Part shown: in pieces, positions 6,784 through 41,691 of the stretch
Layout: each line of letters begins with the position of its first letter
Position numbering within the stretch: position 1 is the stretch's first letter
IMG/VR virus record: IMGVR_UViG_3300042535_000023
Span: 18,192-82,191 of that record
Direction: 5' to 3' (one strand)
DNA: 64,000 bases
From: a virus
Made by a program: the position numbers and the translations under genes
Notes under the pieces: generated by a model
Database searches by the model: none
The model's input: only the letters and a program-made list of their open reading frames with translations
What the model was told of the DNA's origin: nothing

Positions 6784-6785
6784 TT

Positions 6786-7610: not shown

Positions 7611-7619
7611 ATAATTCCT

Positions 7620-8498: not shown

Positions 8499-8507
8499 TC
8501 TGTCTCC

Positions 8508-10653: not shown

Positions 10654-11931
10654 TTAGAAGGTTTCAGCTTCGATTACTTTGTTTGTGTTTTCTATTGTAA
10701 CATTTTTCTTTGGGTTTGTCAAGTTTAAATAAGCATTGTCAAAAGCATTGACCCAGGCTTGTCCAATCTTGCCCTGCCAATCAAGTTCACTACGAACCCA
10801 GTTATAAGCCGTCTCTGCTTTTTTGGCTGCTTCCTCTCTATTATAATAGACGTGAAGCATTTTGTCAACCATATCCTCAACATCAACAAGAGGGCGACGC
10901 ACTTCATTATCATTTGGAAGAACGGTCCAAAGGCTTGGATTTGTTCCACTTTTTACAAGATAGCCTTTGTCTTCAGTAATGAACTCAGTCATAGCTGTAT
11001 TATTTGGCATAATAACTGGTGTCTTTGTGGCCATGGATTCTACCCACTGAAGACCAAAACCCTCACCAAGATTTGTGCTAACAGAAACGTCAGCACAGTT
11101 ATAGAGTGCATTAACGATATTTTTCGGATACCCAGAATTAACTGAAAAATTCTCTGGGAAAATAACATCCTCAGAAGTGCTTAGCCCAAATGAACGGCAT
11201 ACTTCTAAAAGATTCCAGCCCTGATCCTTCTGTGCCATATGTAAGTAAAGAATTGAGTCTTTAACTTGCTTCCGAAACTCTACAAATGCTTGAATAGTTC
11301 GTGGAATATCCTTACGTTGCTGATTACGATTAAGGTTCATAACAATAAACTTGTCCGCATGCTTACCAAAATACTGCTTCTTAAATGGCATTAACTTCTC
11401 TTTAGGAATAACATTATAGTCATTAAGATTAACACCATGAGGAATTACTTTAATATCTTCAAGAGATGGTAGGGCTTTGATAGCTTCAGCCTTACCATGC
11501 TCAGTATAAGCAAAAATTTCATCAGCATAACTAATGTTAACTGCCCACTCCGGCTTTAAAATAGAGTCCACTGGAAAATAAACTATTGATCGGAACGGTT
11601 TCTTCATATTCTGTTTTAAATGTGGCATTAGTTCTGGAAGGAAGTCCATAATAAAAGTGTCCTGCAGAAGAAATAAAATATCAAAATCCATTCTTGGGGT
11701 CATTTGGCAGAATTTTCTCCTACCATAAGGATCCCTCTCTCCATTTGTACCAGCCGGGAAAATCTTATATGGAAATTCATGAGGGTCGCCCCAGTAATTA
11801 ATACCAAAATTACTAATCTCATAACGACCTGTCCTGTGCAAAGCCTCGAAAATATTACGAGAAACTGTTGAAAACCCTGTTGCGCTTGTTGGGCTGTCCA
11901 TATAGGCCCATACTTTAATTTTTTTGTCCAT
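10654..11931 (-). CDS. GT4 (GT-B) glycosyltransferase
   Basis: TGFSTVS, YFPVD, IPHGV, NLNRNQQRKD, YNCADV...GEGFGL..VESMA; second ATG (11931) is better spaced from the AAGGAG SD. Confidence 0.88.
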   Translation of the reverse strand: MDKKIKVWAYMDSPTSATGFSTVSRNIFEALHRTGRYEISNFGINYWGDPHEFPYKIFPAGTNGERDPYGRRKFCQMTPRMDFDILFLLQDTFIMDFLPELMPHLKQNMKKPFRSIVYFPVDSILKPEWAVNISYADEIFAYTEHGKAEAIKALPSLEDIKVIPHGVNLNDYNVIPKEKLMPFKKQYFGKHADKFIVMNLNRNQQRKDIPRTIQAFVEFRKQVKDSILYLHMAQKDQGWNLLEVCRSFGLSTSEDVIFPENFSVNSGYPKNIVNALYNCADVSVSTNLGEGFGLQWVESMATKTPVIMPNNTAMTEFITEDKGYLVKSGTNPSLWTVLPNDNEVRRPLVDVEDMVDKMLHVYYNREEAAKKAETAYNWVRSELDWQGKIGQAWVNAFDNAYLNLTNPKKNVTIENTNKVIEAETF

Positions 11932-11956
11932 AAACATCTCCTTTAATTAATTTTAA

Positions 11957-23647: not shown

Positions 23648-26600
23648 TTAACCGAAGATTAATAAATTATCTCTTGTTGAATAGTTGGTTGCTTTAGTCC
23701 AAGCACCTGACCTTTGAATATTTGATATACGTGTCTCATCTAAATATCCCTTATAAGTATATCCTGTTCTAATATCTAAACCACTAAATATAATAGAAGT
23801 TCCACTTGCTACGGTAAAACCTGAAACGGAGAATTGATCATGAAGGGCCCCATTCTTATATGTCTTTGCAACACTTCCATCATAGTTAATACTAACATGT
23901 GCCAGCTCTAACTCTTGAATAGTAAATGTGGTTTCTGGAGTTAGCCCCGATATTGTTTTTGTGCTGGACGCTCCGTGCCAATTATAATGTATAATATACT
24001 TTGTTGGTGTTGCTGAAATCACGTTATTACCCCAAGCCCCATCTCCCTGCAAAGGCTTCATAAATGTTTCTACTGTGCAAGAAGTGAATCCTGGGAAATT
24101 ATTTACCTGACCTTCAGCATAAGATCCATCACAATATAAAGATCCGCCTCCATTAATTATTCCACTAACAAACTCAGGTGTTCCATACACACAAGGTCTA
24201 TTAGAAGAACTCTCAACAAACGATCCATCAAAGTGCCATACCCCTAAATAATTATCATCCCAAACGTCTTGTGCTATAGTAGAGCCACTATCATCTATCA
24301 AATTACTATCTATGTCTATATTATACCACAAATAAATTTCGGTGTCAACAGAAGAACTTATAAAAGGCACCTTTACCCACATATGGGCTGAACCTAAAGT
24401 ATGGTTCCAATAAGAAATTTCAGCAGGGCAGGTTACTTGAGAACCAAAAGCATTAGCTATAAATCTTATTTTCTTCCTATTATCATAACTTTCTCCTGAT
24501 CCATCAGAAAGAATTTCAAACAAAGAAGTAGAATCATAGTCACTACTTCCTGAAGTTAGCCCTATATTAACAAGTATTGGAAAATTTGTCAAGTCAGAAT
24601 CTATCTTAGTATGATCTATCCTTATTCTAATACTATTTCCTTCATTAAATTCCCCATATGTGCCCACTATAACGGATCCTATGTCTTCTGTCAACTTATT
24701 TCTTTCACCAGTTATATATGAAATCAATTCATGTTGATAATTTGATCTTGAAGTTACATCCATTCTGCTTGGTAAATCTCTGAAACCTTTATATTTATAA
24801 CCAACACTTAAAACTCTAGCACTTATATCTTTGTAACCACCCACCGCATTTATTAATGACTCTAAATTATATTTTCTTAAAATACTAACACGATCTATGA
24901 CATCCCTCATAGCTTCATCTATTGTAGAATAATCTCTTAAATCAAATATATATTTTTTCTTTACTTGTGCTCTATCTATTGTATTATCAGTTACTTTTTT
25001 AAATCCTTCTATTCTTATAGACCATTTAGAATTCCTATCTGCTTTATACACTTTTTCTTCGCCCGAAAAAAAGTAATATTGATCTACTGCTTCTCTAAAA
25101 GCAAACTCGACCTCCCTTTGCCAGAAAGGTTCACCAGGAATAACATTTACAACTATATCTCTAGACTTAACTTCATCAAATCTATCTTTCATTGTATATG
25201 AAAGATTAATAGTAGCTATTATACTAGCCCCTAAATCCATATACAAAGGCTGCCCATAAATATAGGAGTAAAAATCAAAGGTGTTTTGTCGTTTATAACG
25301 AACGGTAAAGTAATTGTAAGTGTAACTCGGCTGTCTAACACTAAATGACAATGGTATCCTTGTAACTTCTCTTCTATTATACCTTATTGTTATAGAATCT
25401 TCAACTAAATATTGTTCAGAATTAATATATGATTTAATATCAAACATATTATCAACTATGCTCGAATAAATATAACCCCTCAAATCAAATTTAACTTTTG
25501 GATTTATATAGGCATTTAAATCTTTATACCCAGAGCCAAAACACGCGGCGTTTATTACACCTTTTATATCTATATGAGACAGCAAAGCAATATTTATAAA
25601 GTTTTTTACTAAAGTTATTTTTGGAACCAGCTGAGATGGTATATTTATTAACTTACCAACTGAAAAGATATAAGCCCCTAAATTAAAGGGCTCTATAGTT
25701 TCAATATATGAGTTTATATTTTGTTCGCCATAACTTGTCACATAACCAGGTAAATCTAAAGATACCTTAAGCCCAAGCATACATTTTAAATATGCTTTTA
25801 AATCCACAGGCTGAACCACATTAATATAAGCCCTAATATCATTAGCTCCATACTCAGCTAACATATAGGCAGGTAAATCAAATATGTGCCAAACATCAAT
25901 ACTACTTGATATATCTACAGGTCTTACAGCTTGTAAATAAGCACCCAAATCCTTAGGCGGGGCTTTAATTCCTAATTTACCCCACAAAAGAAATGAATTA
26001 TAAATATGAGGAACAATACCTGGTAAATCATACTCCGCCCAACCATGTAAAAAAGCGGCCACATTTTTTATAACATTACGAGCATACACCCGCATTATAT
26101 GGTTTATATCTATAGATAATCTAAAATTAACTTTTAAATAATTTGGTATATTATGAGTGGCAGGAGTCCAACCGCGTATGGCTACTTTTAAATTCTTTTG
26201 ATTTAATCTATGCCAAGGTCTTATAGTTTGAAAATAATCATATTGTTCTGGATAAGTAGGTTTTAAATACTCTGCTACATCTTTTTCTAATCTAAAATTA
26301 GGTTTTAAATAGTTTGGTATATCACGCTGTCCTGGTTTCCAACCTCTAATAGTATTAAAAATATCCTTACTATTATCACGGGAATAACCTCTAATAAGAT
26401 TAGAAACATTATATTGGTCTTTGCCCCACATTCTTATGGTTGAAAATACATCTTTAATATTACCAACAGAATACATTTTAATTACTGAGTTAACATCCAA
26501 AAAGGAATTAATAGCTGGTTTTATGTAATGTATTAAATCTACTGTATCTTTTATTGTGGGTTTAACATAATTTTTTAAATCTTTAATATACCATTTACCG

Positions 26601-27097
26601 TTAATAGTTCCACGCAAATCAAAATGAGGTGGATTTACCTTTAAATAGCCACCTATATCCCTTATACCACCATATCTACAAGGTAATTTTAAAGTTTTTG
26701 GTCCTCTACTATCATAACCTACTATAATTGTAGGACAATCTTTTAAATAAGTATAATCACTGTTCTGATAAATACCCATAGCAGTCATAATTGAAGATAT
26801 GTCTAAAACTTCTTTAAACACGCCACGAATTGTATTTTTTATATTTATGTAAAATGGAGAATATAGATAGGCATTTAAATCATAAGAACTTTTAAACTTT
26901 ATACCGGTAATATCTGAAGATACATTTTCTTGGCCGGGAGCAAAAACCTTAATTATAGAATTAAGATTAACGGTCCCCTCACTAACAACCCCATAAGAAA
27001 ATTTAAATTGAAGATCATCGTTTGAAGGAGGAGTATAACCTACATCCGAAAACTTAAAAAAGAGGTTATTTGAATTTGGTGGATTATAATCTGCCAA
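23648..27097 (-). CDS. Large virion protein: YxPP N-terminus, 11-14 aa solenoid repeats, C-terminal DUF2341 + LamG
   Basis: TTG start after GGAGG; repeats D-[LIV]-x-x-[YT]-[IL]; IDHTKIDSDLTNFPILV...WVKVP...YLWY, GVWHF, LDETRISNIQRSGAW. Confidence 0.75.
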   Translation of the reverse strand: MADYNPPNSNNLFFKFSDVGYTPPSNDDLQFKFSYGVVSEGTVNLNSIIKVFAPGQENVSSDITGIKFKSSYDLNAYLYSPFYINIKNTIRGVFKEVLDISSIMTAMGIYQNSDYTYLKDCPTIIVGYDSRGPKTLKLPCRYGGIRDIGGYLKVNPPHFDLRGTINGKWYIKDLKNYVKPTIKDTVDLIHYIKPAINSFLDVNSVIKMYSVGNIKDVFSTIRMWGKDQYNVSNLIRGYSRDNSKDIFNTIRGWKPGQRDIPNYLKPNFRLEKDVAEYLKPTYPEQYDYFQTIRPWHRLNQKNLKVAIRGWTPATHNIPNYLKVNFRLSIDINHIMRVYARNVIKNVAAFLHGWAEYDLPGIVPHIYNSFLLWGKLGIKAPPKDLGAYLQAVRPVDISSSIDVWHIFDLPAYMLAEYGANDIRAYINVVQPVDLKAYLKCMLGLKVSLDLPGYVTSYGEQNINSYIETIEPFNLGAYIFSVGKLINIPSQLVPKITLVKNFINIALLSHIDIKGVINAACFGSGYKDLNAYINPKVKFDLRGYIYSSIVDNMFDIKSYINSEQYLVEDSITIRYNRREVTRIPLSFSVRQPSYTYNYFTVRYKRQNTFDFYSYIYGQPLYMDLGASIIATINLSYTMKDRFDEVKSRDIVVNVIPGEPFWQREVEFAFREAVDQYYFFSGEEKVYKADRNSKWSIRIEGFKKVTDNTIDRAQVKKKYIFDLRDYSTIDEAMRDVIDRVSILRKYNLESLINAVGGYKDISARVLSVGYKYKGFRDLPSRMDVTSRSNYQHELISYITGERNKLTEDIGSVIVGTYGEFNEGNSIRIRIDHTKIDSDLTNFPILVNIGLTSGSSDYDSTSLFEILSDGSGESYDNRKKIRFIANAFGSQVTCPAEISYWNHTLGSAHMWVKVPFISSSVDTEIYLWYNIDIDSNLIDDSGSTIAQDVWDDNYLGVWHFDGSFVESSSNRPCVYGTPEFVSGIINGGGSLYCDGSYAEGQVNNFPGFTSCTVETFMKPLQGDGAWGNNVISATPTKYIIHYNWHGASSTKTISGLTPETTFTIQELELAHVSINYDGSVAKTYKNGALHDQFSVSGFTVASGTSIIFSGLDIRTGYTYKGYLDETRISNIQRSGAWTKATNYSTRDNLLIFG

Positions 27098-27110
27098 AAC
27101 TTAAACCTCC

Positions 27111-27410
27111 TTAAAATATTACGTTTATGTCTACAACATTCGAACTATCCAAAGTTTCTTGAGCTCTTCCTGCCTGAGTTGTTGAATAAAAATCATACAA
27201 AGATCTGGTAGAACTATTTATTACACTAACTGTTCCTGATGAGGCTAAATAAAAATTACCTTTATTTATTCCAGCTGATGGATCCGCCCAAATAGAAGTA
27301 AGATTAGAAGAACCTTTCAGTATAAAACCATAAAAAGTTCCTATAGGAGCAAAATCAAAGTCTAAATTATAAACCTCTATGGGGTCATCAAAGTTAAAAT
27401 CTGTGGCCAT
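27111..27410 (-). CDS. Small putative structural protein
   Basis: GGAG SD; DFNF/DFDF N-terminus; structural-gene context. Confidence 0.55.
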   Translation of the reverse strand: MATDFNFDDPIEVYNLDFDFAPIGTFYGFILKGSSNLTSIWADPSAGINKGNFYLASSGTVSVINSSTRSLYDFYSTTQAGRAQETLDSSNVVDINVIF

Positions 27411-27419
27411 AATTAGCTC

Positions 27420-28043
27420 CTAAGAAGTTTCTGGTATAATCCAATCATGAACTATTGTATTAAAGTCTAAATTATTTTCATTAAAACAAACAATATAATA
27501 AGGAGTTGTTAGACTCACAGAAGTCTCAAAAGTATAATGTCCAGTAACATCGCTCCACGTTTCACTTAATAACTTTCCGGTATCTCTATGATAAAGACGT
27601 AACATTCTGGAAACTGGATTTATGCCCTTTTTTGTTACATGCCCTGTCACAAAACCCCTTTGCTCCATTTGCCAATCACCATGCATTAATAAATTTTCTT
27701 GCATGGTGGAGCCAAAAAAAGAAACTTGTGGTCTATTATTTATAGTAAAAGTAGGTGTATTTTTTATACCATTACCAGTCAATCTGCCTTGCTGTGGATC
27801 TAACTTATAAATAGAAGATATAACCTGTGGGGGTTTAATATTAATATCATCTGTTGATGATAAATCTACCACACCATAATAAACACTGTTATCTCTTATT
27901 ATGGGGGACATAACATGAATATCATCTACAAAGGTCTCTATGGTAAGGTATAACTTATTATCTCTTAACACGGGCGACGTGATGTGTATATCATCCGCAG
28001 TATTTGAAGGTATTCCGACAACTACATTTCCAAGATCTGCCAT
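27420..28043 (-). CDS. Tail-associated protein with carboxypeptidase-regulatory-like beta-sandwich
   Basis: GHV...SRMLRLYHRDTG...TWSD.TGHYTF...FNTIVHDWIIP, similar to the C-terminus of the 1717-aa protein; N-terminal DDIH repeats. Confidence 0.6.
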   Translation of the reverse strand: MADLGNVVVGIPSNTADDIHITSPVLRDNKLYLTIETFVDDIHVMSPIIRDNSVYYGVVDLSSTDDINIKPPQVISSIYKLDPQQGRLTGNGIKNTPTFTINNRPQVSFFGSTMQENLLMHGDWQMEQRGFVTGHVTKKGINPVSRMLRLYHRDTGKLLSETWSDVTGHYTFETSVSLTTPYYIVCFNENNLDFNTIVHDWIIPETS

Positions 28044-28051
28044 AGATTATC

Positions 28052-28957
28052 CTATACTATCGGTGTATACCAATCACCGGTTATTTGAAAACATAAATTA
28101 CCAGTATAAATAGGACACATATAAAAAGTATTTCCTGATAATGCCCCTGATCCTTCAAAAGACATAGGATTACGAAATTGAGTAGTTCCTGCTATTATAG
28201 GATCAAATAACCCAGGTAGGTATCCCAAAAAAGTATAATCATGCATAAGTTTAATTCTATCTATATGCATGGCCCCTGTTAATCTATCGGGATATACTAA
28301 ATAACCATGTGATCCTATAGTTGCTCCATCTCCAGTTGTTCTAAAAACACACTGAGTAGAAGGAACAAGTAGATGATTCCAAGCTCTTCTTATATATTTA
28401 CCGCCGCTGGTAAATTGTTGGCCTTGTATCTGGGAATTCCAACCATTAGTTGAGTGTTGTTGTGTTACTAAAAGTGTGTTGTAAGGAAAATCGGCCGAAG
28501 TGCATAAATAATCTCCAAAAAACTGCATATTTCTGTAATCCATATAAGTGGTTGGGTAAGAAGCATAAGAAACACCACTTATAAAATAAAAACTTCTATC
28601 CGTAGCATAAATTTCCCAAGTATTATCTGATGTGACGCTGGTAGCTTTCCAAAACCGACTGTAAATATAACTCTCAGTAACGAAAGGCTCCGTGCCTGTA
28701 TTTATATCAGACATTGTAGCGTAGGCATTAACAGACGTATAAGTTTGGGTATCATCTACTCTCAAATAACACCTTCTTCCCGCCGGAGCTCTATATACAG
28801 CCAGATTAGTTCCAGCAAATACTTTTGACCAACCAGCTGAAGGCTTTGAACCATAACCATTAACTAAACAAGCGTCCAAAACTTTTATAAGTTCGCCGGC
28901 CACATTACTCTGAGTTGGAGCTGATGTATCACTCCATCTATAAACAAATACACTCAT
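28052..28957 (-). CDS. Tail-fibre-like protein, paralogue 1 (D.SAP...LDACLVNGYG family)
   Basis: SDTSAP...LDACLVNGYG, YLRVDD, AYATMSDINTG, FFGDY, GYLPGL. Confidence 0.65.
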   Translation of the reverse strand: MSVFVYRWSDTSAPTQSNVAGELIKVLDACLVNGYGSKPSAGWSKVFAGTNLAVYRAPAGRRCYLRVDDTQTYTSVNAYATMSDINTGTEPFVTESYIYSRFWKATSVTSDNTWEIYATDRSFYFISGVSYASYPTTYMDYRNMQFFGDYLCTSADFPYNTLLVTQQHSTNGWNSQIQGQQFTSGGKYIRRAWNHLLVPSTQCVFRTTGDGATIGSHGYLVYPDRLTGAMHIDRIKLMHDYTFLGYLPGLFDPIIAGTTQFRNPMSFEGSGALSGNTFYMCPIYTGNLCFQITGDWYTPIV

Positions 28958-30568
28958 AATTTTCTCCTAAATTTAATACCAACTGGTGCTGGTATTTATA
29001 AAAACCTGCGCGTTCATTAAAGGAATAACACTCATAACAGTTCCTGACATAGTAACATCCCCATCAACTGTAAATGTATCCATATTTGTATAAGGCTGTC
29101 TATGCAATGGCTCATAAAGTCCTGGCATATCTCCCATATAAGCACCATTGGCCACTAATCTTACTTTATCCATTAATAATTCACCAGTGGCTGGGTTTGG
29201 AAAAGTTATTGCATTATAATAACCAAGGTTAGTTTTACCAAAATTAAAATAAGCTATGGCTCTATTACCATTACCCTTTAGATAGTCCCAATAACGCCAA
29301 CAACGTTTTCCATTAGTATCATAATTAATAGAATTTATATTATAGCCAGCTGAAGCCCTACTAGCATCACCTGTAATACCGTGAGTAAGCATAGTATTAT
29401 ATGGAAACTCTGTGTCTCTACATTTATAGTCCCCGAAAAAATTTAAAACTCTACTTGTGTAAGAAGCATTACTACACATAACAATATAAAAACTTCTATC
29501 TGAAGCATAAACCTCCCATCTTGCGGTTACACCAGAAACAGTAGAGTCAACCTTCCACCAAACTCTACTTGTGTCATTCCAATCGCTGAAGGGCTCCTCA
29601 CCTGTGTTTATATCAGACATTGTAGCGTAGGCCTGAACTTGAGCAAACCTGTAATCGCCGGCCGAAATCGGAGCATTATCATCAATATATAAATAACAGC
29701 CCCTAGAACCAGAGAGAGTTGACCTAAATACGGCTTTGCCGGAGCCTACATCCTCATAAGGACATTGCCAGCCAGCACCTGAAATGGTAACTCCAGAAGA
29801 AGTGGTCCATCCATCCACTAAACACTTTTTTAACACAGTATTTAAAGACCCTTTAGTGTAGTCCAATAAAGGGGCGCCTTGATCCAAATATGTATATTTA
29901 TGAATTAAACTCATCTATGTCTCCTATGTCCAAGGGCCTGTAAGATCTATAACACACATACTATTATAGCAAGGTAAACAATATAAATTTCTTCCTGATA
30001 GACTACCTGAACCAGAAAAAGTTACTGGATATGAAACTGCTGATGATGGGCTATGTATGATGTCGTATAGTCCTGGCATTTTTCCAATTAAACTTGAATT
30101 CTGCACCATATTGACAGGCTCTATTACCATGTCCCCCAAAATAGGATCAGGAAAAACTGATAAAGCAGTATGTAGCCCAAGGTAACTAGAATTTCCAACC
30201 GTCAGGTAAGTAAATTGCTGACCTGTCTGTAAAATTTCATTCCAACCACGTCTACAGTATTTTCCAGAAGTATTTATAGTCTGAAGATCATAATTATATT
30301 CCATATTATCTCTATAAGTGCCATTAACACCATGTATTAAAGCTGTATTATAAACAAAGGCAGTATTCCTAGCTACATAATCTCCAAAAAAGAATATAGC
30401 TTTATGTGCGACAACTGTAGCATGACTACCAACATAGTAAAAAGAAGTGTCTGATGCTATAACTTCCCAAGGATTTGCTGCATTGTCTTGACTTTGGCAC
30501 CAATTAACTGCAGCAGAGTTTGTAAACGGCTCAGTTCCCGTATTTATATCAGACATTGTAGCGTAGGC
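28701..30568. repeat. Three identical 26-bp direct repeats TTTATATCAGACATTGTAGCGTAGGC (28701-28726, 29607-29632, 30543-30568)
   Basis: Read directly; one copy in each tail paralogue, encoding AYATMSDIN. Confidence 0.92.
28973..29914 (-). CDS. Tail-fibre-like protein, paralogue 2
   Basis: DQGAP...LKKCLVDGW, AYATMSDINTG, FFGDY, GDMPGL. Confidence 0.65.
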   Translation of the reverse strand: MSLIHKYTYLDQGAPLLDYTKGSLNTVLKKCLVDGWTTSSGVTISGAGWQCPYEDVGSGKAVFRSTLSGSRGCYLYIDDNAPISAGDYRFAQVQAYATMSDINTGEEPFSDWNDTSRVWWKVDSTVSGVTARWEVYASDRSFYIVMCSNASYTSRVLNFFGDYKCRDTEFPYNTMLTHGITGDASRASAGYNINSINYDTNGKRCWRYWDYLKGNGNRAIAYFNFGKTNLGYYNAITFPNPATGELLMDKVRLVANGAYMGDMPGLYEPLHRQPYTNMDTFTVDGDVTMSGTVMSVIPLMNAQVFINTSTSWY

Positions 30569-30808
30569 CTGAACCACTGCATATCCAGATGCGTTAGAAT
30601 TATCTACTCTTAAATAACATCTATTACCAGAAGGTGGGCGATAAACCCTTAGGTTAGCTCCTGTATATACTATAGACCAACCAGCGGAAGCCTTAGAACC
30701 ATAGCCATTAACTAAGCATGCATCTAAAACACTAACTAACTGGCCAGCAGTAAAGTTTGTTATTTGTGGGGCACTTGCATCTGTTGAGCTATATTTTGTT
30801 ATTGCCAT
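29924..30808 (-). CDS. Tail-fibre-like protein, paralogue 3
   Basis: STDASAP...LDACLVNGYG, AYATMSDINTG, FFGDY, GKMPGL. Confidence 0.65.
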   Translation of the reverse strand: MAITKYSSTDASAPQITNFTAGQLVSVLDACLVNGYGSKASAGWSIVYTGANLRVYRPPSGNRCYLRVDNSNASGYAVVQAYATMSDINTGTEPFTNSAAVNWCQSQDNAANPWEVIASDTSFYYVGSHATVVAHKAIFFFGDYVARNTAFVYNTALIHGVNGTYRDNMEYNYDLQTINTSGKYCRRGWNEILQTGQQFTYLTVGNSSYLGLHTALSVFPDPILGDMVIEPVNMVQNSSLIGKMPGLYDIIHSPSSAVSYPVTFSGSGSLSGRNLYCLPCYNSMCVIDLTGPWT

Positions 30809-30816
30809 AAAATCTC

Positions 30817-31512
30817 CTATCTCATATGGTAAATACCTACTCTATTTGTTCCTTCATCAATAACAAAAGCCCCTGATGTGGTAGCTACAAATAGAACATT
30901 GTTTATTTTATTAAGTGATGTTTTTTCAGTTACATAAATATCATTTATTTTTTCATTCTTTGGTAATTTTGAATCATCCGTTAAATATTTATAAGATGAC
31001 TCTTCCCAATTATTTAATTTATTTGTTTGAACATCTATTTCCCAACCAGCTACACCTGAAATAGTATAGTATAACTCACCATAACTTGTAATATGACACT
31101 TTTCGGCCCGGCCTCCGCCGGTTATAGTAGTAATACTTTTATAACCCTGTGGTATGGCCTCAATTAAAGAAACCCTTGTTCCTGAATTAGAGACTATACC
31201 TAAAAAATTACCATTAGCATTAACATAATTAACATTATTACTTTCTATATAAGGGGAGGTTAAATAATCTTCTAAACAATTATATAAATTATAAGGAGTA
31301 ATTACACTACCACTAATACAAGTCTTGTTTACCCTTTTTAGCCCGCTGTAAGTAGTTCCAATATAAACATAATCTTTGGCCCCAGTTATTGATACGGTAT
31401 CCTCTAATGGTATATAAGCACACAAATCATTAGTATCTACTGTGTATATACTTAACTGACTTGCTGCAGCTGCGTAAATATAATTACTATCTGTATATAT
31501 TTGTTTTATCAT
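30817..31512 (-). CDS. Beta-propeller-like putative structural protein
   Basis: Repeated strand motifs YIYAA, YVYIGT, LFVATTSG. Confidence 0.55.
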   Translation of the reverse strand: MIKQIYTDSNYIYAAAASQLSIYTVDTNDLCAYIPLEDTVSITGAKDYVYIGTTYSGLKRVNKTCISGSVITPYNLYNCLEDYLTSPYIESNNVNYVNANGNFLGIVSNSGTRVSLIEAIPQGYKSITTITGGGRAEKCHITSYGELYYTISGVAGWEIDVQTNKLNNWEESSYKYLTDDSKLPKNEKINDIYVTEKTSLNKINNVLFVATTSGAFVIDEGTNRVGIYHMR

Positions 31513-34500
31513 TAAGGTATAATCCTATCAAAAATCATAGCATTAAATGTATCTCTTGGTGGTAAAGCTACTACATAATGAGGTTCCCCAGCATAAGGAG
31601 AAGATACCATGAAAGTCCCACTCTCGGTAGCAGTATTTGTGTAATCTACAACTTCCCCTGTGCTACTTCTATGTAAATAAATAGGCACTCCAGAGGACCT
31701 GGTCCCTAAATCGGAAGCCCAACCATTAAATGTAAACCTATTATAAAAATTAAAAACTTCGCTTGTATTTGTTACTCCAGTTGTTGTGGTTTCAATATAC
31801 CACTTATATTCAATACCACTTGGAGTATCAAAATCTACATAAACAGTATCGCCACTATGAACACCTGAAACTGTGCTACCTATATGGGCATTATAAATAT
31901 CATAAAAATCAACTGAAAAACTACTATCAGGAAGACCTGACATAGTTACTATTGCAGACAATTGTTTGGTTTGGCCATATACTGTGCTTCCATTTTCTGG
32001 TATAATATTAGAAAAAGCAAAAAACTCAGAAATAGATTGAAGTAGCCCATCATTTAAACTATAATATGTAGCCTTTCTCCAAGCATCTGATCTAGCTATA
32101 CTCGATATTCTAACCTCATCTATATGGCCTTTAAATGACTGACTATAACCAACCGAACCGCCTATAGCGTTTGATGTATTAGCTCCTATACTCACCCCAC
32201 TAACTGATGTGCTACTATCTTTTTGAACCAAATCCATGTAAGCTATAAGATTTGACCCAGATCTTACTAAATTATAATATTGCCAAGTTCCAGTTACAGT
32301 AGCTATATTATCTACATAAACTGACCCATTAACAAAAGTTACACCATAAGCAAGCCCAGAATCAACATATAAGGCATGAAACTTATTAGCAGAGGAACTA
32401 TTACTAAATATGGTATTCGGCCCTACTATATAAATACCGCCTTCTATAGTAAAATCACCTGTTCCAAAGTTAAAATTAGAACTATCCTTCAAAGCTATTA
32501 GGTCGTTGGAACCGTCAAAATCTAAGGCTCGTCCTACTTGTCCATTTACTATAGAATCTGCTTCTATCATTGACCCTTGTGGGGTGCCATGTAATTGATA
32601 TTTAGTTGAATCTTTTATACTATCTGTTCCATATACTGGGTTTTGATTTAAATGATATACAGCACTGTAATTATTAGACCACACTTTTTGCGCGGAAAAA
32701 TCTCCAACATCGCCAATATATTGGGAGGCTGGTTTATTTTTATCATAATAAAGTTTAAGTTGTGTGTAGGAGATGCTATCAACAGTAGGAACTTTTGTCC
32801 AAAGTGATGCCTTATTGACATACTCATATAAACATATTTTACGAATTAAAATATTGGTTCCGCCTCCAGAAATATTATCAGCGACCCTAAAAATATAATA
32901 TCTAAATGACTGATTATTATCTAAATAGAAAAATTGTTTATCTATACGATCTATAGCAACATGGTCTCTGGCTGTAAAGGTGCCCAACAAAGTTAAATCA
33001 TCTATATTAGAATAAGTTGTATTAGAAAAAGCAGCACTACTATTAGAACCATAAATAGAAAAGTTCTTTGCACCCATATTAGTAACACCGCCAGAAGAAT
33101 GTCCATTTTCTATATAAAATCTTTTTATTATCTTACTTTCACCTAAATCAATATTAAATTTTTGATTGGTTATTTGCCCATTCCCTGATGCCCAGGTGGC
33201 GTTTGCATGATTACCTAAAACGGTTATGGTTGGATCAACAGCAAACCAAGGTAAATAATTTGAATCATGATAACTTGTGGCTATTACTGTAGTTGTGTTA
33301 ATTATTTTAGGATAAACAGAAACATATCTATTTTCCCAATCACTAATTTCTGTATAAAGTTCTGTCTCTATTCCACTCACAGTGGTAGTTACAGCCATAC
33401 TTTTTCTGTTATGCCAAGATTTACCATACTCATCTTTGGGGTAATCAAAGCCTATTTTATAGTAATTGGGTATACCTTTAGTTATTCTTGGATAAGCTAT
33501 GTAGCCGGCAGTAAATTGAATTATATTATTTTCAGAACTGTTCATTCTTCCACCAACACGTATTGCTTTATTTGTACATCCTAAAGAGGCAGAATGTGTG
33601 GTCTTGCTAAGGAAAAACCCATTTAAATAAAAATACAAATAACCATCCATCCTGACCAAGGCTACATGATGCCATTGGTTAGTAGTAAGTCCTGGGGCCG
33701 ATACAGCTATAAAAGAAGATGCCCCCGAAGCTCTTGTAGCAAAAACTATCTTTACTCCAGAACCCCAAGCGCCGTCTGTACCATATTGAAGTGCCCAGGT
33801 TCCGTCTCCGGCTGCATCCATCGCCCCTTGTGAAAATAAACATTTGGCAACCGATACATCTGTAGGATATACCCAAGCCTCCATAGTAAAGTCGCCGATG
33901 CCCAGATTTATAGAGGGATCGTATGGAGTGTATAAGTAAGAAGTCGATCCATTAAAATATAAACTCTGCTTAAAAGATAACAATGTACCTATAGGGACAA
34001 AATTAGAGGGTGGAGAATAAGAAAACTCATTAGAATTAAATCTAAAAGTAGCAGTAGAGGTAGTATATAAACCTACTATTGGTTTTACTGGCACCGCTCT
34101 ATTTTTTAAAAAAGAGGAGCCCGTAAAAGCTGGATTCTCGCCAGTAGTTGGATTTCCTGATGCTTGCCAAACACCATTTTTAGAAAACCAAACAGAGCCC
34201 GTGTAATGATCGACAGCAACACCAACCACATCCCCAACAGCAAAAGTATTACCATAAGCTGTTGGTAAGGCATTATAATATGTATTTCCACTATTTCCAT
34301 AATAACCATAACTTGTGGTGTTGTCTCCAGGGTAAAAACCCGTAGGATTGCCTATACCTACCATATGATGGGTACTCGAACCCTGGTCCACTATAACTTC
34401 AAAATAGTATCTACCAAAATCTGCATGGGCATTTGTAGTAATACTTGCCCAACTATTATAAGCGGCGTAAGATACTGATTTTTTTTCAGTTGTAATAGTG

Positions 34501-36665
34501 GCATGGTAATTAAAATAATACTTTTTTATTAGATTACCAACAAAAGATACTGGATTTTTATAATTGGAGATGTCACCATCAAAAGATAAAAGTAATTTAG
34601 TCCCGCTTGTTGTTGTATAAGGATAAGTTGGAGGAGTAAAATTAGATGTCCATAAAGCCTCCCCTTTGGTTATTCTTACGCCATACATACTACCAACAAA
34701 CGGTATTACTGTTCCTCCGTCAAGTAAATCTTTTCCTATATTTAAAGGACGAGTTGTAGCGAAATTATTAGAAACGGTCCCAGATGCTGTAGCTATACCA
34801 TCCTTATATATCTTTGTCTGATTGGTCCCTTCCCTGACAACCGCTATGTGGGTAAAGGTATTACTAGTAGGTGTTCCCCCATTATTTATCATCTCTACTA
34901 AACCACTGTGAAACTCTAACTGGCCGCCAAAAATTTCAAAAGACCACATATCAGCACTAGCACCGGAGCTTGGCCTATTACTAATTAAAGCTCGTCCTGT
35001 TCCAATGGCTGACATATTAACATACATATCTATAGTAAAAGGGCCTGTTCCAAAAGTCCAATCATCGGAACTTGGTAACTGTAAGTAAGAAGTTCCATCA
35101 AAATTACAACAATAGTTAAAACCACTAACTGTTGTCCCACTTATTGTAGCATTATTATAAAAATTAATTTGTCTTGATGAATCAACATCATCCATGGTAG
35201 AATGTATATATAAAATATCCTCTGCTTCCGCTGGAATTTCTTTTTCATTGGTTGGAATAAAAGTATTATCAAACAAACAATTGCCGTTATTGATTCTTAA
35301 TTCAGATATATATCCGTTTAAGTAATGATCAGAAAAAGTATTACCATTTATGCCTATAATTAGGGGCTGAGTAGAAATACCCAAAATAGGTCCAGCGTAA
35401 TAAGAATCTTGTTCACCATTTATATAACAGGACGTTATTTTACCATTATAACATAAACTAATATGATACCATATATTAGCGCTAATGGTTTTTGCCCCTG
35501 TTATCAACGTTCCTGCGCCAGCAAAATATCCTTGTGGATACCAACATATTTTATTTCCTGAGCTAAGATACAAATACCAAGAACCATTAACAGAAGTATT
35601 CTGCCAAACATTTAAAAGTGTTTGTTGCGTAGAAACTACGCTAAAATTAACCCAAAAGTCTATAGTAAAATCTTGATTATTAAAATAAAAATCCGATGAT
35701 GCTGGGATAGAAATATAAGAACTTAATCCATTAAAATAATAACTTTTTTCAAATATCCCGTACCCTGAGTAAGATTGCACATTAGTAAAAGACATATATT
35801 TTACGGGAGTTGATAAATCCCCCTCTGGTAACAACAATAATCTAGTATCTTTATCAGGAATATATGATCCTATAACCGAATCCAATTGAAAATCCGAGGT
35901 CCATTTAGCCACACCTTTAGTAACCCTAATCAATGCTAAATTACCTTTAAATCTTCTATCTGAGGGATTAGACCCTATGTAAAGATCGGCCGCAACAATA
36001 GATGTGGAATTATTTGATGACCCAGAAGCTACTCCGTTAATATAAATACTTATTGCCCCACTATTTTTTACCACTGCGACGTGTGACCACTGTCCTGAAG
36101 TTAAAGCGGAAGTAGAGGCCAGCTGAAATGCCCACACAGAACCATTATAATAAATATGAACTCCTATGTAAAGACCGCCTGTAGACCAATCAGAGGCTGT
36201 AGAATACCCCAAAGTTATTTCCAAATAAGCGGCAATTCTAAAAACTATATCACGCTCGTTTGTAGATCCGTATGGCTCTATCCAAAAATCTACTGTAAAA
36301 TCTTCTGTACCAAAAGCCCAATCTGAACTGGAAGGTATAAGCAAATAATCATCTAAACCATCAAAATAATAACAATAATCCGTGTCATTTAAACTAGATG
36401 TACCACTTATAATCGCCCCACCATAATAAGTAATATTATGCCTAGACCATGAAGAGTCTCCAACACAGTGATTTAATAAGCTTGTACCACTGACATTAGG
36501 ATCATAATCTAATTTTGTAAATACGTTAGAAAGGTCATAATTATTTATACCCGTTCCAGATGCTATAGACATTAAGGCAGGAAAATCTACAAGATCTTCA
36601 TCTATTTTACTACTATCAATTACTAAAGTAGTGCTATAATCCCAACCTGTTGGATCAAAGGTCAT
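31512..36665 (-). CDS. Giant multi-lectin virion protein (split DUF2341, ~5 LamG, SPRY, discoidin-like, C-terminal beta-sandwich)
   Basis: Repeated FDG...FGT.DFT[VI]D.W...WxHVAVV...RITKG LamG units; GRYYFEV...GDVVGVAVD...WFSKNG SPRY; NQKFNIDLG...FRYY discoidin. Confidence 0.8.
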   Translation of the reverse strand: MTFDPTGWDYSTTLVIDSSKIDEDLVDFPALMSIASGTGINNYDLSNVFTKLDYDPNVSGTSLLNHCVGDSSWSRHNITYYGGAIISGTSSLNDTDYCYYFDGLDDYLLIPSSSDWAFGTEDFTVDFWIEPYGSTNERDIVFRIAAYLEITLGYSTASDWSTGGLYIGVHIYYNGSVWAFQLASTSALTSGQWSHVAVVKNSGAISIYINGVASGSSNNSTSIVAADLYIGSNPSDRRFKGNLALIRVTKGVAKWTSDFQLDSVIGSYIPDKDTRLLLLPEGDLSTPVKYMSFTNVQSYSGYGIFEKSYYFNGLSSYISIPASSDFYFNNQDFTIDFWVNFSVVSTQQTLLNVWQNTSVNGSWYLYLSSGNKICWYPQGYFAGAGTLITGAKTISANIWYHISLCYNGKITSCYINGEQDSYYAGPILGISTQPLIIGINGNTFSDHYLNGYISELRINNGNCLFDNTFIPTNEKEIPAEAEDILYIHSTMDDVDSSRQINFYNNATISGTTVSGFNYCCNFDGTSYLQLPSSDDWTFGTGPFTIDMYVNMSAIGTGRALISNRPSSGASADMWSFEIFGGQLEFHSGLVEMINNGGTPTSNTFTHIAVVREGTNQTKIYKDGIATASGTVSNNFATTRPLNIGKDLLDGGTVIPFVGSMYGVRITKGEALWTSNFTPPTYPYTTTSGTKLLLSFDGDISNYKNPVSFVGNLIKKYYFNYHATITTEKKSVSYAAYNSWASITTNAHADFGRYYFEVIVDQGSSTHHMVGIGNPTGFYPGDNTTSYGYYGNSGNTYYNALPTAYGNTFAVGDVVGVAVDHYTGSVWFSKNGVWQASGNPTTGENPAFTGSSFLKNRAVPVKPIVGLYTTSTATFRFNSNEFSYSPPSNFVPIGTLLSFKQSLYFNGSTSYLYTPYDPSINLGIGDFTMEAWVYPTDVSVAKCLFSQGAMDAAGDGTWALQYGTDGAWGSGVKIVFATRASGASSFIAVSAPGLTTNQWHHVALVRMDGYLYFYLNGFFLSKTTHSASLGCTNKAIRVGGRMNSSENNIIQFTAGYIAYPRITKGIPNYYKIGFDYPKDEYGKSWHNRKSMAVTTTVSGIETELYTEISDWENRYVSVYPKIINTTTVIATSYHDSNYLPWFAVDPTITVLGNHANATWASGNGQITNQKFNIDLGESKIIKRFYIENGHSSGGVTNMGAKNFSIYGSNSSAAFSNTTYSNIDDLTLLGTFTARDHVAIDRIDKQFFYLDNNQSFRYYIFRVADNISGGGTNILIRKICLYEYVNKASLWTKVPTVDSISYTQLKLYYDKNKPASQYIGDVGDFSAQKVWSNNYSAVYHLNQNPVYGTDSIKDSTKYQLHGTPQGSMIEADSIVNGQVGRALDFDGSNDLIALKDSSNFNFGTGDFTIEGGIYIVGPNTIFSNSSSANKFHALYVDSGLAYGVTFVNGSVYVDNIATVTGTWQYYNLVRSGSNLIAYMDLVQKDSSTSVSGVSIGANTSNAIGGSVGYSQSFKGHIDEVRISSIARSDAWRKATYYSLNDGLLQSISEFFAFSNIIPENGSTVYGQTKQLSAIVTMSGLPDSSFSVDFYDIYNAHIGSTVSGVHSGDTVYVDFDTPSGIEYKWYIETTTTGVTNTSEVFNFYNRFTFNGWASDLGTRSSGVPIYLHRSSTGEVVDYTNTATESGTFMVSSPYAGEPHYVVALPPRDTFNAMIFDRIIP

Positions 36666-36676
36666 ATATTACCTCG

Positions 36677-39406
36677 TTATATTCCCCACCAAACTTTTAA
36701 TCTAGTGGTTTCATTTGTGTCGAAAGATTCATTAGGAAAATTAGTCTGAATATATAAAGGCTGGCTTGAATTTGGCTGTATATCTTCCACTTTTACCGCC
36801 GGCGGAGAAAGTATCTCATGAATTATAGGTGTCACAGAAGGATTATTAGTCATCAAATCAAACTTAACTTGGTGATATTTAGTTTTAGGTAAAAAATAAC
36901 CACTAGCTTTTACTTTTTGCCAAGCCAAAGTCCCACTAACTCCCCAAACTGGATCATAGGTTGCTGGTAAGACTTGTATATCACTTTTACAATGTGTATC
37001 ATGTTCTACATGATAAATATCAAAAAATCCTGTAGTAGTATAACCGGTTGTCATAGTTTTAAGTATATTCCCATTATTATTATAAATAATTATGCTATCA
37101 TTAGAAGCGCTATAAACTGCTACATACCCTTTTTCTGCGCGAATTTGTGTAGGAGCTGACACAGCAAAAGTAATTCTTCTAACCCCAGAACTATCATGAT
37201 GGCTAATTTGATTATTATTAGCCCCCCAAAATCCATCAGAACCATCATTACAAATATAATACATAGAGTGGGTGGCTTGTATGATTCCTAAAGAACTACC
37301 ATCATCAATAAATCGTTTAACAGTATAACCAACAATGTCTGAAACCCAACACCCCCCATCCCCTGTAGAACAAACTGCTCCTGGATCTGTCATAGATGTA
37401 TCACTAAACAAAGAGTTACCTGAACTATCTAAATGAACCAAACTTTTGTTAGATTTGTCTATATACCAAACACCACCTCCATTTATTTCTGGAGAAAAGT
37501 TTTTAATATAATCAAAAGTCGATTGATAAGACCAAACAACAACAAGACTACCACTACTATAATCTATTAAAACAAATTTTGTGTGACTTTTACAATACGC
37601 CCATAAACGACCATTCCCATCATAAGATAGTCCCCCATCAAATGCATAATCGTTACCTAAACTAGAAACATTATTTATTAACAATTTACCAGTGTTAATT
37701 ACCTTTACTGTCTGCAGTACATAATCCCATGGGGCGGAAATGGAAGTATTAACAAAAACATGTCCTTGTTTTCTACATACAGCTGTTCCTATAGTAGTAT
37801 AATAATTATTATATCCAGGATTTGACCAATTATACCAAATGGCATTTTCTATATTTGTATATAAGTTATATGTATATATAACTGTAGCATATATGGTGCT
37901 TGCTTTATATCCCCAATAAATTTCATCCACCGCTACAGGCTCTATATTACTACTTCTTACATTTATTGTTCCACCATACACATTTAAATCGTCGCCTATA
38001 GTAGTCCCACTAACTACTGTGGTGGTAGTTAATAAATAACTTGAAGAATATTGATCTGGAAAATTAAATATTGGTGTAAGATAAGAACCTGAGGCAGTAA
38101 CTAAACTACCAATCGAAACAAATCCTGTAGGAATAGGGTAAGAAAAAAAGGCACTATCAAATCTAAAAGTTACTTTATCATTCTGATGATATAGTGCAGC
38201 TGCTGGCCTAATTGGGGTAGTTTTACTTTTTATGAAAGCCAGATTAGTATAATTAGGAGAAGTATCAGTGGATGGATTACCACTATTTTGCCAAACTCCA
38301 TTTTTTGAAAACCAAATAGAACCATAAGTATGATCAACTGCTATACCTATTACATCATTTGTTGTGTATGCTGAACCCATACCAAAAGCACCGTTATTAT
38401 AATAACCATTCCCATCATAACCATAATAAGCTATACTAGTAGAATTGTTTCCTGGGTAAGTATCTATATTATAAGTTATGTTACCTATACCTATCATCAT
38501 GTGTGTAGGAGAGGTTAATTGATCCACTTTTACTTCAAAATAATATTTACCATGCATTATAGCGCCGGCCGTTTGGCCGGCTTTCCAAGAATCAGTAACA
38601 GTTTTAGTTAAAGAAAACCCACTTATAGTTATAGCTGAATTAACATTATTACTATCAAAAACAAAAGGCTCTGTTTTATATAATTTAATAGTATTACCTG
38701 ATACACAAGTAAAATCTCCAGGAAAAGTTCCTAAATCCCATCTGTAGTCAGTATTTATATTATCACTACCTATAGCAAAACCATCTTCTAAGCCATAAAA
38801 CTTATTCTGCTCTCCGTTATAAAGTTTAATATATTTATCAGACTCTTCTCCTGTATAATCAATAGTAATATAAGCATTGGCTACAGTATCACCGCTATTG
38901 TATAAATCTATATGAGATACATCTCCGGATAACATATTATTAAGAGTTATGTCTGATTCATTTCCTTCCACGCCAAAACTTACTATCTCATCGTTATTTA
39001 ATGCTTTTATTTCCAATAACTCACAAGTAGTATTAGTAATATAAAATCTAATATATCTTGGAGAAAAAGAGTCTGGAAGATTTTCAACATAAAAATATTC
39101 GGAATTAAAATTTCTTGTAAGATTGGTATAAGAATCAACCTCATAATTTTTATAAGATAGGTTCATATTACCTAAAATGGTTCCAGATGCTGTAGAGCTA
39201 CTTAAATATATCCTTATATCACTAATATTTATTCTATTAGATAGATCTATATCTAAATATAAAGTCTGGCCTGTTAAGGATGCGCCTGAAGAAGTAGTGT
39301 TATTATTTACAAGTTTAGCTAATTGATCGTAGGATAAACTAATGCCGACCCCAGAAACTGTGGTTGATTTTATTATCCCATCAAGTATTATATTATCCTT
39401 GGGCAT
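36677..39406 (-). CDS. Virion protein with SPRY domain and beta-propeller
   Basis: GKYYFEV...IGIAVD...WFSKNG SPRY; GGVWY, GGCWV, DGFWG propeller blades; paralogous to the neighbouring 751-aa protein. Confidence 0.7.
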   Translation of the reverse strand: MPKDNIILDGIIKSTTVSGVGISLSYDQLAKLVNNNTTSSGASLTGQTLYLDIDLSNRINISDIRIYLSSSTASGTILGNMNLSYKNYEVDSYTNLTRNFNSEYFYVENLPDSFSPRYIRFYITNTTCELLEIKALNNDEIVSFGVEGNESDITLNNMLSGDVSHIDLYNSGDTVANAYITIDYTGEESDKYIKLYNGEQNKFYGLEDGFAIGSDNINTDYRWDLGTFPGDFTCVSGNTIKLYKTEPFVFDSNNVNSAITISGFSLTKTVTDSWKAGQTAGAIMHGKYYFEVKVDQLTSPTHMMIGIGNITYNIDTYPGNNSTSIAYYGYDGNGYYNNGAFGMGSAYTTNDVIGIAVDHTYGSIWFSKNGVWQNSGNPSTDTSPNYTNLAFIKSKTTPIRPAAALYHQNDKVTFRFDSAFFSYPIPTGFVSIGSLVTASGSYLTPIFNFPDQYSSSYLLTTTTVVSGTTIGDDLNVYGGTINVRSSNIEPVAVDEIYWGYKASTIYATVIYTYNLYTNIENAIWYNWSNPGYNNYYTTIGTAVCRKQGHVFVNTSISAPWDYVLQTVKVINTGKLLINNVSSLGNDYAFDGGLSYDGNGRLWAYCKSHTKFVLIDYSSGSLVVVWSYQSTFDYIKNFSPEINGGGVWYIDKSNKSLVHLDSSGNSLFSDTSMTDPGAVCSTGDGGCWVSDIVGYTVKRFIDDGSSLGIIQATHSMYYICNDGSDGFWGANNNQISHHDSSGVRRITFAVSAPTQIRAEKGYVAVYSASNDSIIIYNNNGNILKTMTTGYTTTGFFDIYHVEHDTHCKSDIQVLPATYDPVWGVSGTLAWQKVKASGYFLPKTKYHQVKFDLMTNNPSVTPIIHEILSPPAVKVEDIQPNSSQPLYIQTNFPNESFDTNETTRLKVWWGI

Positions 39407-41661: not shown

Positions 41662-41691
41662 AATCTTTCTCCTATAATATAGATAAGTTAC

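Follow-up and report, generated by a model that had tools for sequence, protein, structure and literature searches.

Short acceptor sequences for protein glycosylation are represented in bacteria by D/E-x-N-x-S/T, used by Campylobacter PglB, and by D-(S/T)-(A/I/L/V/M/T) in the O-glycosylation of Bacteroidota; in these systems, lipid-linked glycans are transferred outside the cytoplasm via an oligosaccharyltransferase. In eukaryotic proteoglycans, xylosyltransferase attachment takes place at Ser-Gly marked by nearby acidic residues, and a T at position -2 has no part in it. Very few systems are known in which a phage encodes the glycosylation of its own particle; for instance, mycobacteriophages reportedly encode glycosyltransferases (GTs) that decorate their own structural proteins by O-glycosylation. 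The subject here is the four-residue pattern T-x-S-G (x, a free position) in the putative virion proteins encoded by a 64,000-nucleotide stretch of viral DNA (hereafter the window; positions 18,192 to 82,191 of IMG/VR record IMGVR_UViG_3300042535_000023), and above all in the second of three tandem tail paralogues, P2. T-x-S-G is a selected, clade-specific short motif of the virion-module proteins of this phage, and the P2 lineage acquired its copies after gene duplication, at positions dispensable for the fold. The motif is tentatively read as an O-glycosylation sequon for enzymes of the phage itself.

The glycans of mycobacteriophage virions are reported on the C-termini of capsid and tail-tube subunits (PMC12619734). 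The heptosyltransferases TibC and AAH are described as soluble enzymes by which the beta-rich proteins TibA and AIDA-I are hyperglycosylated at many Ser residues but not at Thr; one mapped site is Ser-313 in an N-S-G-G context, and the acceptor Ser lies on a protruding loop of the beta-structure (PMC4358343). For the tail proteins, the closest described structure is that of phage JBD30, in which each lateral "bent arm" fibre is reported to consist of three heterodimers of gp47 and gp48, two proteins of similar fold; the fibres are joined to the distal tail protein and to the upper baseplate protein and bind the type IV pilus (PMC11445458). A literature search by motif name and on phage virion glycosylation returned no report of a short acceptor motif in phage particles; PMC8402811, which deals with lipid-linked glycans on a cystovirus, has no bearing on the question.

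T-x-S-G sites of paralogue 2

The three paralogues are encoded in tandem on the minus strand, namely P1 at 29924-30808 (294 residues), P2 at 28973-29914 (313 residues), and P3 at 28052-28957 (301 residues), with identities in alignments of 37% for P1-P2, 44% for P1-P3, and 33% for P2-P3. P2 is the T-x-S-G-rich member of a tail-fibre/baseplate-arm family. The initial annotation of this DNA had counted five T-x-S-G in P2 against one and none in its sisters, and the translations bear out these counts together with the strings that it quoted. P2 carries TSSG at residue 38, TISG at 43, TLSG at 66, TVSG at 125, and TMSG at 288; P1 has a single TFSG at residue 263 (30011-30022), a site common to six homologues, and P3 has none. 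The composition of P2 itself predicts 0.21 occurrences against the five seen (Poisson P = 2.9e-6), and the lowest P value among 2689 control open reading frames (ORFs) from 156 unrelated phage loci was 5.4e-5, weaker than that of P2.

An AlphaFold2 (AF2) model of P2, built on 45 sequences, reached a predicted local distance difference test score (pLDDT) of 82.3 and a predicted template modelling score of 0.87. The first two motifs form a tandem, TSSG-V-TISG (residues 38-46; 29777..29803, minus strand), modelled as a short hairpin or coil within a block of pLDDT 96. This loop, GWTTSSGVTISGAGW, contains the motif pair and a five-residue insertion in place of the GYG-SKxAA-GW loop of the family. 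In short-loop homologues, this segment is nearly always GYG-[SAT]-[KQR]-x-x-x-GW, and of 123 additional homologues whose short loop can be recognised, 121 lack T-x-S-G in it. TLSG (residues 66-69; 29708..29719, minus strand) lies in a variable segment after a conserved YR, TVSG (residues 125-128; 29531..29542, minus strand) in coil right after model strand 118-124, and TMSG (residues 288-291; 29042..29053, minus strand) on an x-[LYM]-[AS]-G element found throughout the family, of which 82 of 88 members have the G.

In a 177-sequence alignment of the family, site 38 was found in P2 only, site 43 recurred in the same column only in P0002, P0003, and P0004, all of which belong to the clade of P1, P2, and P3, and sites 66 and 125 recurred only in P0002, whereas site 288 was common to P0002, P0003, and three outsiders. 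At the same column, four of the five sites (38, 43, 66, and 125) are therefore confined to their own lineage and absent from all outsiders. The earlier proposal that the motif is not a requirement of the fold is upheld. The same proposal had placed the gains at variable loop positions; a gain in the P2 lineage did occur, but the 38-46 loop is strongly conserved in short-loop homologues and is not a variable one.

T-x-S-G was counted in three sets of family members, which may overlap and were taken irrespective of the GT content of their phages. Among the first 88 non-redundant members, 48 had no copy, 25 had one, 10 had two, three had three, one had four, one (P2) had five, and none had six. 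The 85 further members from metagenome loci comprised 45 with none, 23 with one, 13 with two, none with three, one with four, two with five, and one with six, and the 139 further database homologues comprised 55 with none, 54 with one, 19 with two, 11 with three, and none with four to six.

Lineage history of the paralogues

A FastTree phylogeny of 113 short-form members grouped P1, P2, and P3 with the database proteins closest to them in a single clade with a Shimodaira-Hasegawa-like support of 99 and the topology P3 | (P1, P0004) | (P0003, (P2, P0002)). The three genes were therefore duplicated within the lineage, and P2 acquired its T-x-S-G sites after the duplication. The nearest relatives are P0002, 83% identical to P2, and P0007, 75% identical to P1, for both of which the same 2017-bp longest contig is listed. 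P0002 holds four of the five P2 sites with x altered at two of them, the T of site 38 being replaced by N, and P0007 has a plain GYGSKPSAGW loop and only the family-wide TFSG, so that the asymmetry between the sisters recurs in the nearest relative (four copies in the P2 orthologue, one in the P1 orthologue). In a more distant pair, P2-like P0003 has four copies, and the P1-like P0008 and P0004 have two each, including TISG in the 38-46 loop. The motif had been described as absent from the sisters, and this is correct for the loop of P1 and P3 themselves but not for these two distant P1-like proteins. Together with P3-like P0010, which has one copy, the counts by lineage are 5, 4, and 4 for P2, 1, 1, 2, and 2 for P1, and 0 and 1 for P3.

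The contrast between P2 and its sisters could also be chance scatter over a rate of T-x-S-G that is raised throughout the phage. At the rate of the other virion-module proteins, P2 is expected to have 0.98 copies (P = 0.0034), which becomes approximately 0.06 after correction for the 17 proteins tested, and P1 and P3, with approximately one copy expected, are ordinary at that rate. Scatter does not agree, however, with an excess that is passed down in the P2 lineage, the lineages of P1 and P3 holding zero to two copies, with the retention of four sites in the nearest relative despite changes of x, or with the placing of tandem motifs in the most conserved loop of the family, and it is considered very improbable.

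The record of this phage has a complete relative, G001 (268,764 bp), with which it is largely syntenic. P2 has no match in the records of relatives G001-G004, and a metagenome scan gave no close relative of P2, the best being 39% identical. Positions 27420-30808 of the window, which hold the three paralogues and the next ORF of 207 residues, are missing from G001, where an unrelated ORF of 360 residues stands instead (G001:C1:216266-217348) and the neighbouring gene order is slightly different. The absence of the trio from a syntenic relative, with another ORF in its place, suggests a variable and seemingly swappable fibre cassette.

Family and fold

All three paralogues match phrog_9600, annotated as "tail assembly protein", and phrog_9998. 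The two profile matches of P2 have E values of 6.9e-27 (residues 5-287) and 1.3e-33, and the PHROG matches of P1 and P3 have E values of 3.7e-38 and 8.7e-38. Relatives were found by tblastn in 43 phage records at 23-36% identity, chiefly in siphophages of Xanthomonas, Stenotrophomonas, Xylella, and Ralstonia. Two to four family paralogues in tandem are common in other phages (e.g., loci L006, L009, L026, and L054), and the neighbours of P1-P3 include Laminin_G_3 and baseplate-wedge PHROG matches.

A search of the PDB sequences with the family profile gave no match. Foldseek with the P2 model returned chain K (317 residues; E 4.8e-6, template modelling (TM) scores 0.51/0.50) and chain G (305 residues; E 1e-4, TM scores 0.53/0.55) of entry 8rk3, the only two with E <= 0.001 among the 500 PDB matches listed. 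The chain lengths and the text of PMC11445458 indicate that these chains are probably gp47 and gp48 of JBD30. By analogy with JBD30, P1-P3 may assemble as heteromers into lateral arms of the baseplate. P1, P2, and P3 are best explained as copies of a phage building block of baseplate arms or tail fibres that was duplicated within this lineage.

T-x-S-G enrichment in the virion module

The putative virion module (23648..63926, minus strand) consists of 17 ORFs with 12,728 residues, some with Laminin_G_3, SPRY, or baseplate-wedge PHROG matches and many unannotated. It contains 44 T-x-S-G against 8.0 expected from the composition of each protein (P = 9e-19), which makes T-x-S-G the first of 8000 patterns of the form a.bc; the runner-up has P = 5e-5. 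Without prior classification of the genes, the motif still ranks first over all 71 ORFs of the record (47 against 10.6 expected) and over all 272 ORFs of G001 (74 against 30.1 expected). The 32 non-virion ORFs at 3-23579, with roles in replication, repair, and sugar metabolism, contain one copy against approximately 1.4 expected.

The relatives of this phage were retrieved with a 533-residue protein at 37-66% identity. Ten of their 11 loci show a 2.9-6.3-fold excess and one a 2.2-fold excess, with observed and expected numbers that include 27/4.3, 18/3.2, 16/3.6, 21/5.0, 13/3.9, 11/3.8, 11/3.8, and 8/3.7. In 76 unrelated phage loci with the same tail family, 287 copies were found against 197.5 expected (1.45-fold), with no locus above 3.5-fold, and the 389 non-redundant ORFs of at least 300 residues in these loci had 199 against 133 (1.5-fold). 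As the loci of relatives are raised and the unrelated ones reach only approximately 1.5-fold, the trait belongs to the clade.

The specificity applies to each fixed position. Given T..G, Ser is enriched 3.9-fold and Thr is at 0.63-fold; given ..SG, Thr is enriched 3.9-fold and Ser is at 0.81-fold; and G after T.S is enriched 4.5-fold. The x position is free and mostly V, I, S, T, A, or L, and the flanks are small or beta-branched, with T/V/S/A/P/I/L at -1 in 41 of 44 sites and T/V/S/I/L/A/F/G at +1 in 43 of 44. The motif Ser is encoded by 27 TCN and 17 AGY codons; the use of both codon families rules out a cause at the DNA level and places selection at the protein level. T/S/G-rich patches are ruled out as a cause by the other five orders of T, S, and G, which occur 4-9 times against 8.0 expected. 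Repeated homologous domains, a further candidate, are unsupported on inspection by eye, since the 44 contexts are diverse and only one local duplication was seen, in a protein of 2502 residues.

The leading alternative to a modification site is that T-x-S-G is a lineage-specific habit of ending a beta-strand and making a tight two-residue turn in beta-rich virion proteins of the clade, with no covalent modification, the gains in P2 being remodelled loops or hairpins for, e.g., a new fibre interface or receptor. The beta-branched or small flanks suit such a role, as does the occurrence of T-x-S-G in some outsiders at site 288 and within three columns of sites 66 and 125. On the other hand, a turn habit gives no account of the failure of Ser and Thr to replace each other, T-x shows no preference for a following N-G or D-G, both common turn formers (0.96-fold and 0.64-fold), and the excess in the clade is approximately four times greater than that in the tail proteins of other phages. 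It also leaves unexplained the overwriting of a loop conserved in more than 100 homologues, as well as two large proteins that escape the motif (described below). This purely structural account is a serious competitor of the sequon reading, though a less probable one.

Conservation of the sites between relatives

In ten orthologous pairs of this phage and G001, T, S, and G are all kept at 13 of 29 ungapped aligned T-x-S-G sites, the rest being gains or losses, compared with 791 of 7624 (10.4%) for all triples at i, i+2, and i+3 (P = 2e-6) and with 15 of 110 for other triples of T, S, or G. Only three of the 13 conserved sites have the same x residue in both phages. The wider motif hypothesis is strongly supported (the P2 contrast had been offered as an internal control for a sequon) by the enrichment, the specificity at each position, and this positional conservation with a free x.

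Next to P1, a protein of 231 residues (30817..31512, minus strand) has three T-x-S-G within a repeated element of hydrophobic strand, T-x-S-G, and strand; T, S, and G are invariant in three of three orthologues and x varies. The C-terminal approximately 110 residues (1574-1683) of a 1717-residue Laminin_G_3/SPRY protein (31512-36665) contain four T-x-S-G, all of which are kept in G001 with x changed at three. Two large proteins are poor in the motif. The 1888-residue protein at 49585..55251 (minus strand), with no Pfam or PHROG match, has none against 7.7 expected at the module rate (P = 5e-4), and a single copy occurs in its 1935-residue G001 orthologue. The protein is possibly an internal or tape-measure-like component beyond the reach of the selective pressure. 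A 7667-residue protein of G001, encoded by one ORF at G001:C1:148970-171973, has two against 3.3 expected from its composition.

Sugar and glycosyltransferase genes

The start of the window is occupied by a sugar-nucleotide and glycan-tailoring cluster (3..9626; Pfam and NCBIfam scans), with all genes on the minus strand. It comprises a PseB/FnlA-like UDP-GlcNAc 4,6-dehydratase (3-521, continuing upstream), methyltransferase-like ORFs at 506-1135, 1789-2274, and 4345-4872, a sulfotransferase (3672-4340), a WecB-type 2-epimerase (5713-6783; 220 bits against a curated cut-off of 210), a GT2 (6786-7610), a GT2-like ORF (7620-8498), and a GT1 (8508-9626). A GT4-type GT, matching Pfam Glycos_transf_1 and GT4-conflict and conserved in the clade, follows at 10654..11937 (minus strand). 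In these scans, Glycos_transf_1 was thus found in two ORFs and Glycos_transf_2 in two, one of them weak. The window start and the 2 kb upstream of it also hold an RmlD-like reductase, a KdsC-like phosphatase, and a DXD-type candidate GT, which brings the totals to four to five GTs and three or four methyltransferase-like ORFs. A gene for ThyX thymidylate synthase (9637-10530) lies between GT1 and GT4, as it does in G001.

The dehydratase, reductase, epimerase, GT2, GT1, and GT4 are kept in G001 at 48-72% identity, the GT4 at 63% (BLASTP) to 66%. Genes without a counterpart in G001 are the sulfotransferase, two methyltransferase-like ORFs, an unannotated ORF of 205 residues (these within 3051-4872), and the GT2-like ORF at 7620-8498. 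As tailoring genes are missing from G001 while the core is kept, the decoration of the glycan may vary between relatives. The GT4 was found in the records of four of eight relatives (G001, G002, G003, and G005), and the other four records are only 14-37% complete; every clade member whose record covers the region has the GT4, and the tracking of motif and enzyme therefore has no negative case. GT4 homologues occur in 14 phage records, for instance in Synechococcus phage S-CBS4, where the gene stands with a second GT and a methyltransferase between portal and head protease, and in Tetrasphaera phage TJE1, where it stands with sugar genes just ahead of the terminase.

Neither this record nor the complete G001 contains a Wzy_C/PglL-type ligase (PF04932), Bac_transf (PF02397), or Wzx flippase (PF01943), families that were detected in 9, 9, and 13 of 14 control genomes; the search did not extend to STT3/PglB. 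The lack of a ligase, an initiating transferase, and a flippase fits stepwise, direct transfer in the cytoplasm by soluble enzymes, although host enzymes are possible.

The motif may instead be recognised by a partner that is not a GT, such as a kinase, a sulfotransferase acting on protein, a host enzyme, or an assembly chaperone, or it may be a surface ligand-binding element. Enrichment, specificity, and conservation apply equally to these and identify no partner, and the window has a sulfotransferase and several methyltransferase-like genes. However, scans of the 71 ORFs showed no kinase or other protein-modifying enzyme, G001 is enriched in T-x-S-G without counterparts of the sulfotransferase and of two methyltransferase-like ORFs, and the only conserved candidate enzymes beside the trait are the sugar and GT genes. 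A partner of this kind is regarded as quite improbable.

T-x-S-G as a candidate glycosylation sequon

The best reading of T-x-S-G is an O-glycosylation sequon for the phage's own enzymes, to which we assign a probability of roughly 45%. Soluble phage GTs would O-glycosylate the Ser or Thr of the motif in the cytoplasm, at exposed strand-turn positions of folded virion proteins. The donor would be a phage-made sugar of the UDP-6-deoxy-HexNAc type, further methylated and sulfated. The extended form [T/V/S/A]-T-x-S-G-[T/V/S/I] is under both positive and purifying selection on virion-module proteins of this clade of AT-rich jumbo phages. P2 is the paralogue in which the motif has accumulated, with five sites that include a tandem pair written into the most conserved loop of the family, and would then be the glycan-bearing subunit of the fibre.

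Several observations weigh against a sequon, in addition to the modest P value of P2 at the module rate given above. First, we infer each of its parts, i.e., that the motif is modified, on which residue, by which enzyme, and with which sugar. Second, the placement of the motifs has a structural side. The earlier claim that they sit in loops is right in that DSSP assigns the Gly of all five P2 motifs, and both Ser and Gly of four, to coil, but 53% of the P2 model is coil, which makes such placement weak evidence; P2 motifs also begin where strands end, those at sites 66 and 125 exactly. In the 231-residue neighbour, the three conserved sites fall at strand-turn-strand positions, each at a beta-hairpin turn of a weak AF2 model, and this pattern is what a structural motif would look like, although the model is of low confidence (pLDDT 61). 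Third, the motif is not foreign to other phages. Unrelated tail proteins have it at 1.5-fold, where it is again the commonest of the six permutations, which indicates that some structural propensity exists; T-x-S-G lies within three columns of sites 66 and 125 in six and two outsiders of the 177-sequence alignment, respectively, and some family members in unrelated phages are also rich in it, with four to six copies. Fourth, the link to the enzymes is loose. Virion proteins of the two phages with GT4 homologues described above show an excess of only approximately twofold, with 5 against 2.5 in TJE1 and 15 against 7.4 in S-CBS4 (about ranks 459 and 40), no GT was seen in the examined flanks of loci L064, L067, L039, L030, and L044, which have fairly T-x-S-G-rich members or a high locus ratio, and a profile built from seven GTs turned up no other GT1-type gene among the 156 control loci. 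The GT cluster, with ThyX inside it, could also act elsewhere, for instance on host surface glycans or on DNA.

One locus outside the clade shows a similar arrangement and favours the sequon reading. On an unrelated GC-rich contig, a family array (L150:1416-7373) has two members with five and four T-x-S-G and sisters with none. Both rich members carry a tandem T-x-S-G-x-T-x-S-G shortly before the conserved GW, and one has T-x-S-G within three columns of P2 site 125. A Glycos_transf_1 gene (E 5e-17) follows the array, one ORF beyond the last T-x-S-G-rich member, and has no detectable similarity to the GTs of this phage. The member at L150:1416-2693 seems to be frameshifted at its 3' end in comparison with L159:77-1450. 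Given the five T-x-S-G-rich loci with no GT in their flanks and the lack of a further GT1-type gene, L150 amounts to a single anecdote. Two adjacent T-x-S-G-rich proteins, with 5 copies in 307 residues and 3 in 281, were also seen on a short contig (L149).

The sequon reading can be extended to a fuller scheme, in which T-x-S-G would be a true sequon of a jumbo-phage clade and the first short one for phage virions, served by soluble GTs with a 6-deoxy-HexNAc glycan of variable decoration, with P2 coated, P1 and P3 bare, and perhaps an independent origin in L150. Methyl and sulfate decoration would vary between relatives in a serotype-like manner, which fits the tailoring genes missing from G001, and the phage would add or remove sequons to control which of its fibre subunits carries the coat. 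Taken as a whole, this scheme is unlikely.

If T-x-S-G were a true sequon, the sequence by itself would suffice to predict virion glycosylation, genomes of uncultured phages would reveal glycan shielding or receptor masking of fibres, and glycoengineering would gain a compact cytoplasmic pair of tag and enzyme. Even if purely structural, a four-residue pattern at the top of 8000 in two genomes, conserved with its second position free, would be an unusual clade-specific constraint in need of explanation.

The record, its relatives, and other genes

The record measures 82,191 bp, of which the window is the final 64 kb, and its estimated completeness of 31% (CheckV) indicates a jumbo phage, which is uncultured. 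The window has a GC content of approximately 34%, and every long ORF is on the minus strand. No close relative was found among isolate phages by blastn of 56740-63236 or by tblastn of the 533-residue protein. That protein gave nothing usable from a PDB sequence search or the Atlas, and a 490-residue protein had no relative among the viral contigs searched. A DnaJ search for a hint of the host gave 35-41% identity spread over many phyla and no signal. Aquatic "moraphages" are described as carrying DnaJ/DnaK genes and four core GT groups (PMC12619734).

Other genes include a 111-residue MtN3/SemiSWEET-like (PQ-loop) membrane protein encoded upstream of the window among nucleotide-metabolism genes (L080:4541-4876), with 53% identity in G001. 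At 18779-20172, the genes for an IceA-like protein (PF05315, E 6e-26) and for an N6/N4 DNA methyltransferase overlap; the two look like a restriction-modification-type pair, and G001 has no counterpart of either. A 349-residue ORF at 55591-56640, with a double zinc ribbon and a phage endonuclease I/TnsA-like nuclease domain, stands between two conserved virion-module genes and is absent from G001; it is probably a homing-endonuclease-type insertion.

Comparison with known systems

P2 shares its fold with JBD30 gp47/gp48 at moderate similarity (TM score about 0.5), and in both phages, paralogues of approximately 300 residues are encoded by adjacent genes in the tail module. The sequence identity between P2 and the 8rk3 chains is only 10-15%, JBD30 has two paralogues and this phage three, and JBD30 is a siphophage, whereas the present one is a jumbo phage known from its genes. 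The available part of the JBD30 text mentions neither a T-x-S-G feature nor glycosylation of gp47/gp48 (PMC11445458).

Among glycosylation signals, T-x-S-G resembles the bacterial sequons in being a motif of the three-to-five-residue class with one free position that occurs on many unrelated proteins. The motif itself differs, and the ligase, transferase, and flippase families searched for in the two genomes were not found. With the proteoglycans, it shares the Ser-Gly core, and a sulfotransferase is present in the same gene cluster of this phage; around 143 S-G dipeptides, no enrichment of D/E was seen at -6 to +7, as a proteoglycan-type context would have.

TibC/AAH offer a working analogy for a beta-rich protein with numerous Ser-Gly turn sites, with no claim of membership. 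No GT9-type heptosyltransferase family appeared in Pfam scans of the 71 ORFs, the donor there is ADP-heptose and here a predicted UDP-HexNAc-derived sugar, and the available part of the TibC/AAH text describes no T at -2 (PMC4358343). The likeness to the mycobacteriophages lies in phage GTs acting on the phage's own virion, which for a phage known from genes alone is a proposal. The two differ in where the sugar is, or would be, attached: the mycobacteriophage glycans are C-terminal, whereas the candidate sites here are four-residue motifs dispersed over many virion-module proteins.

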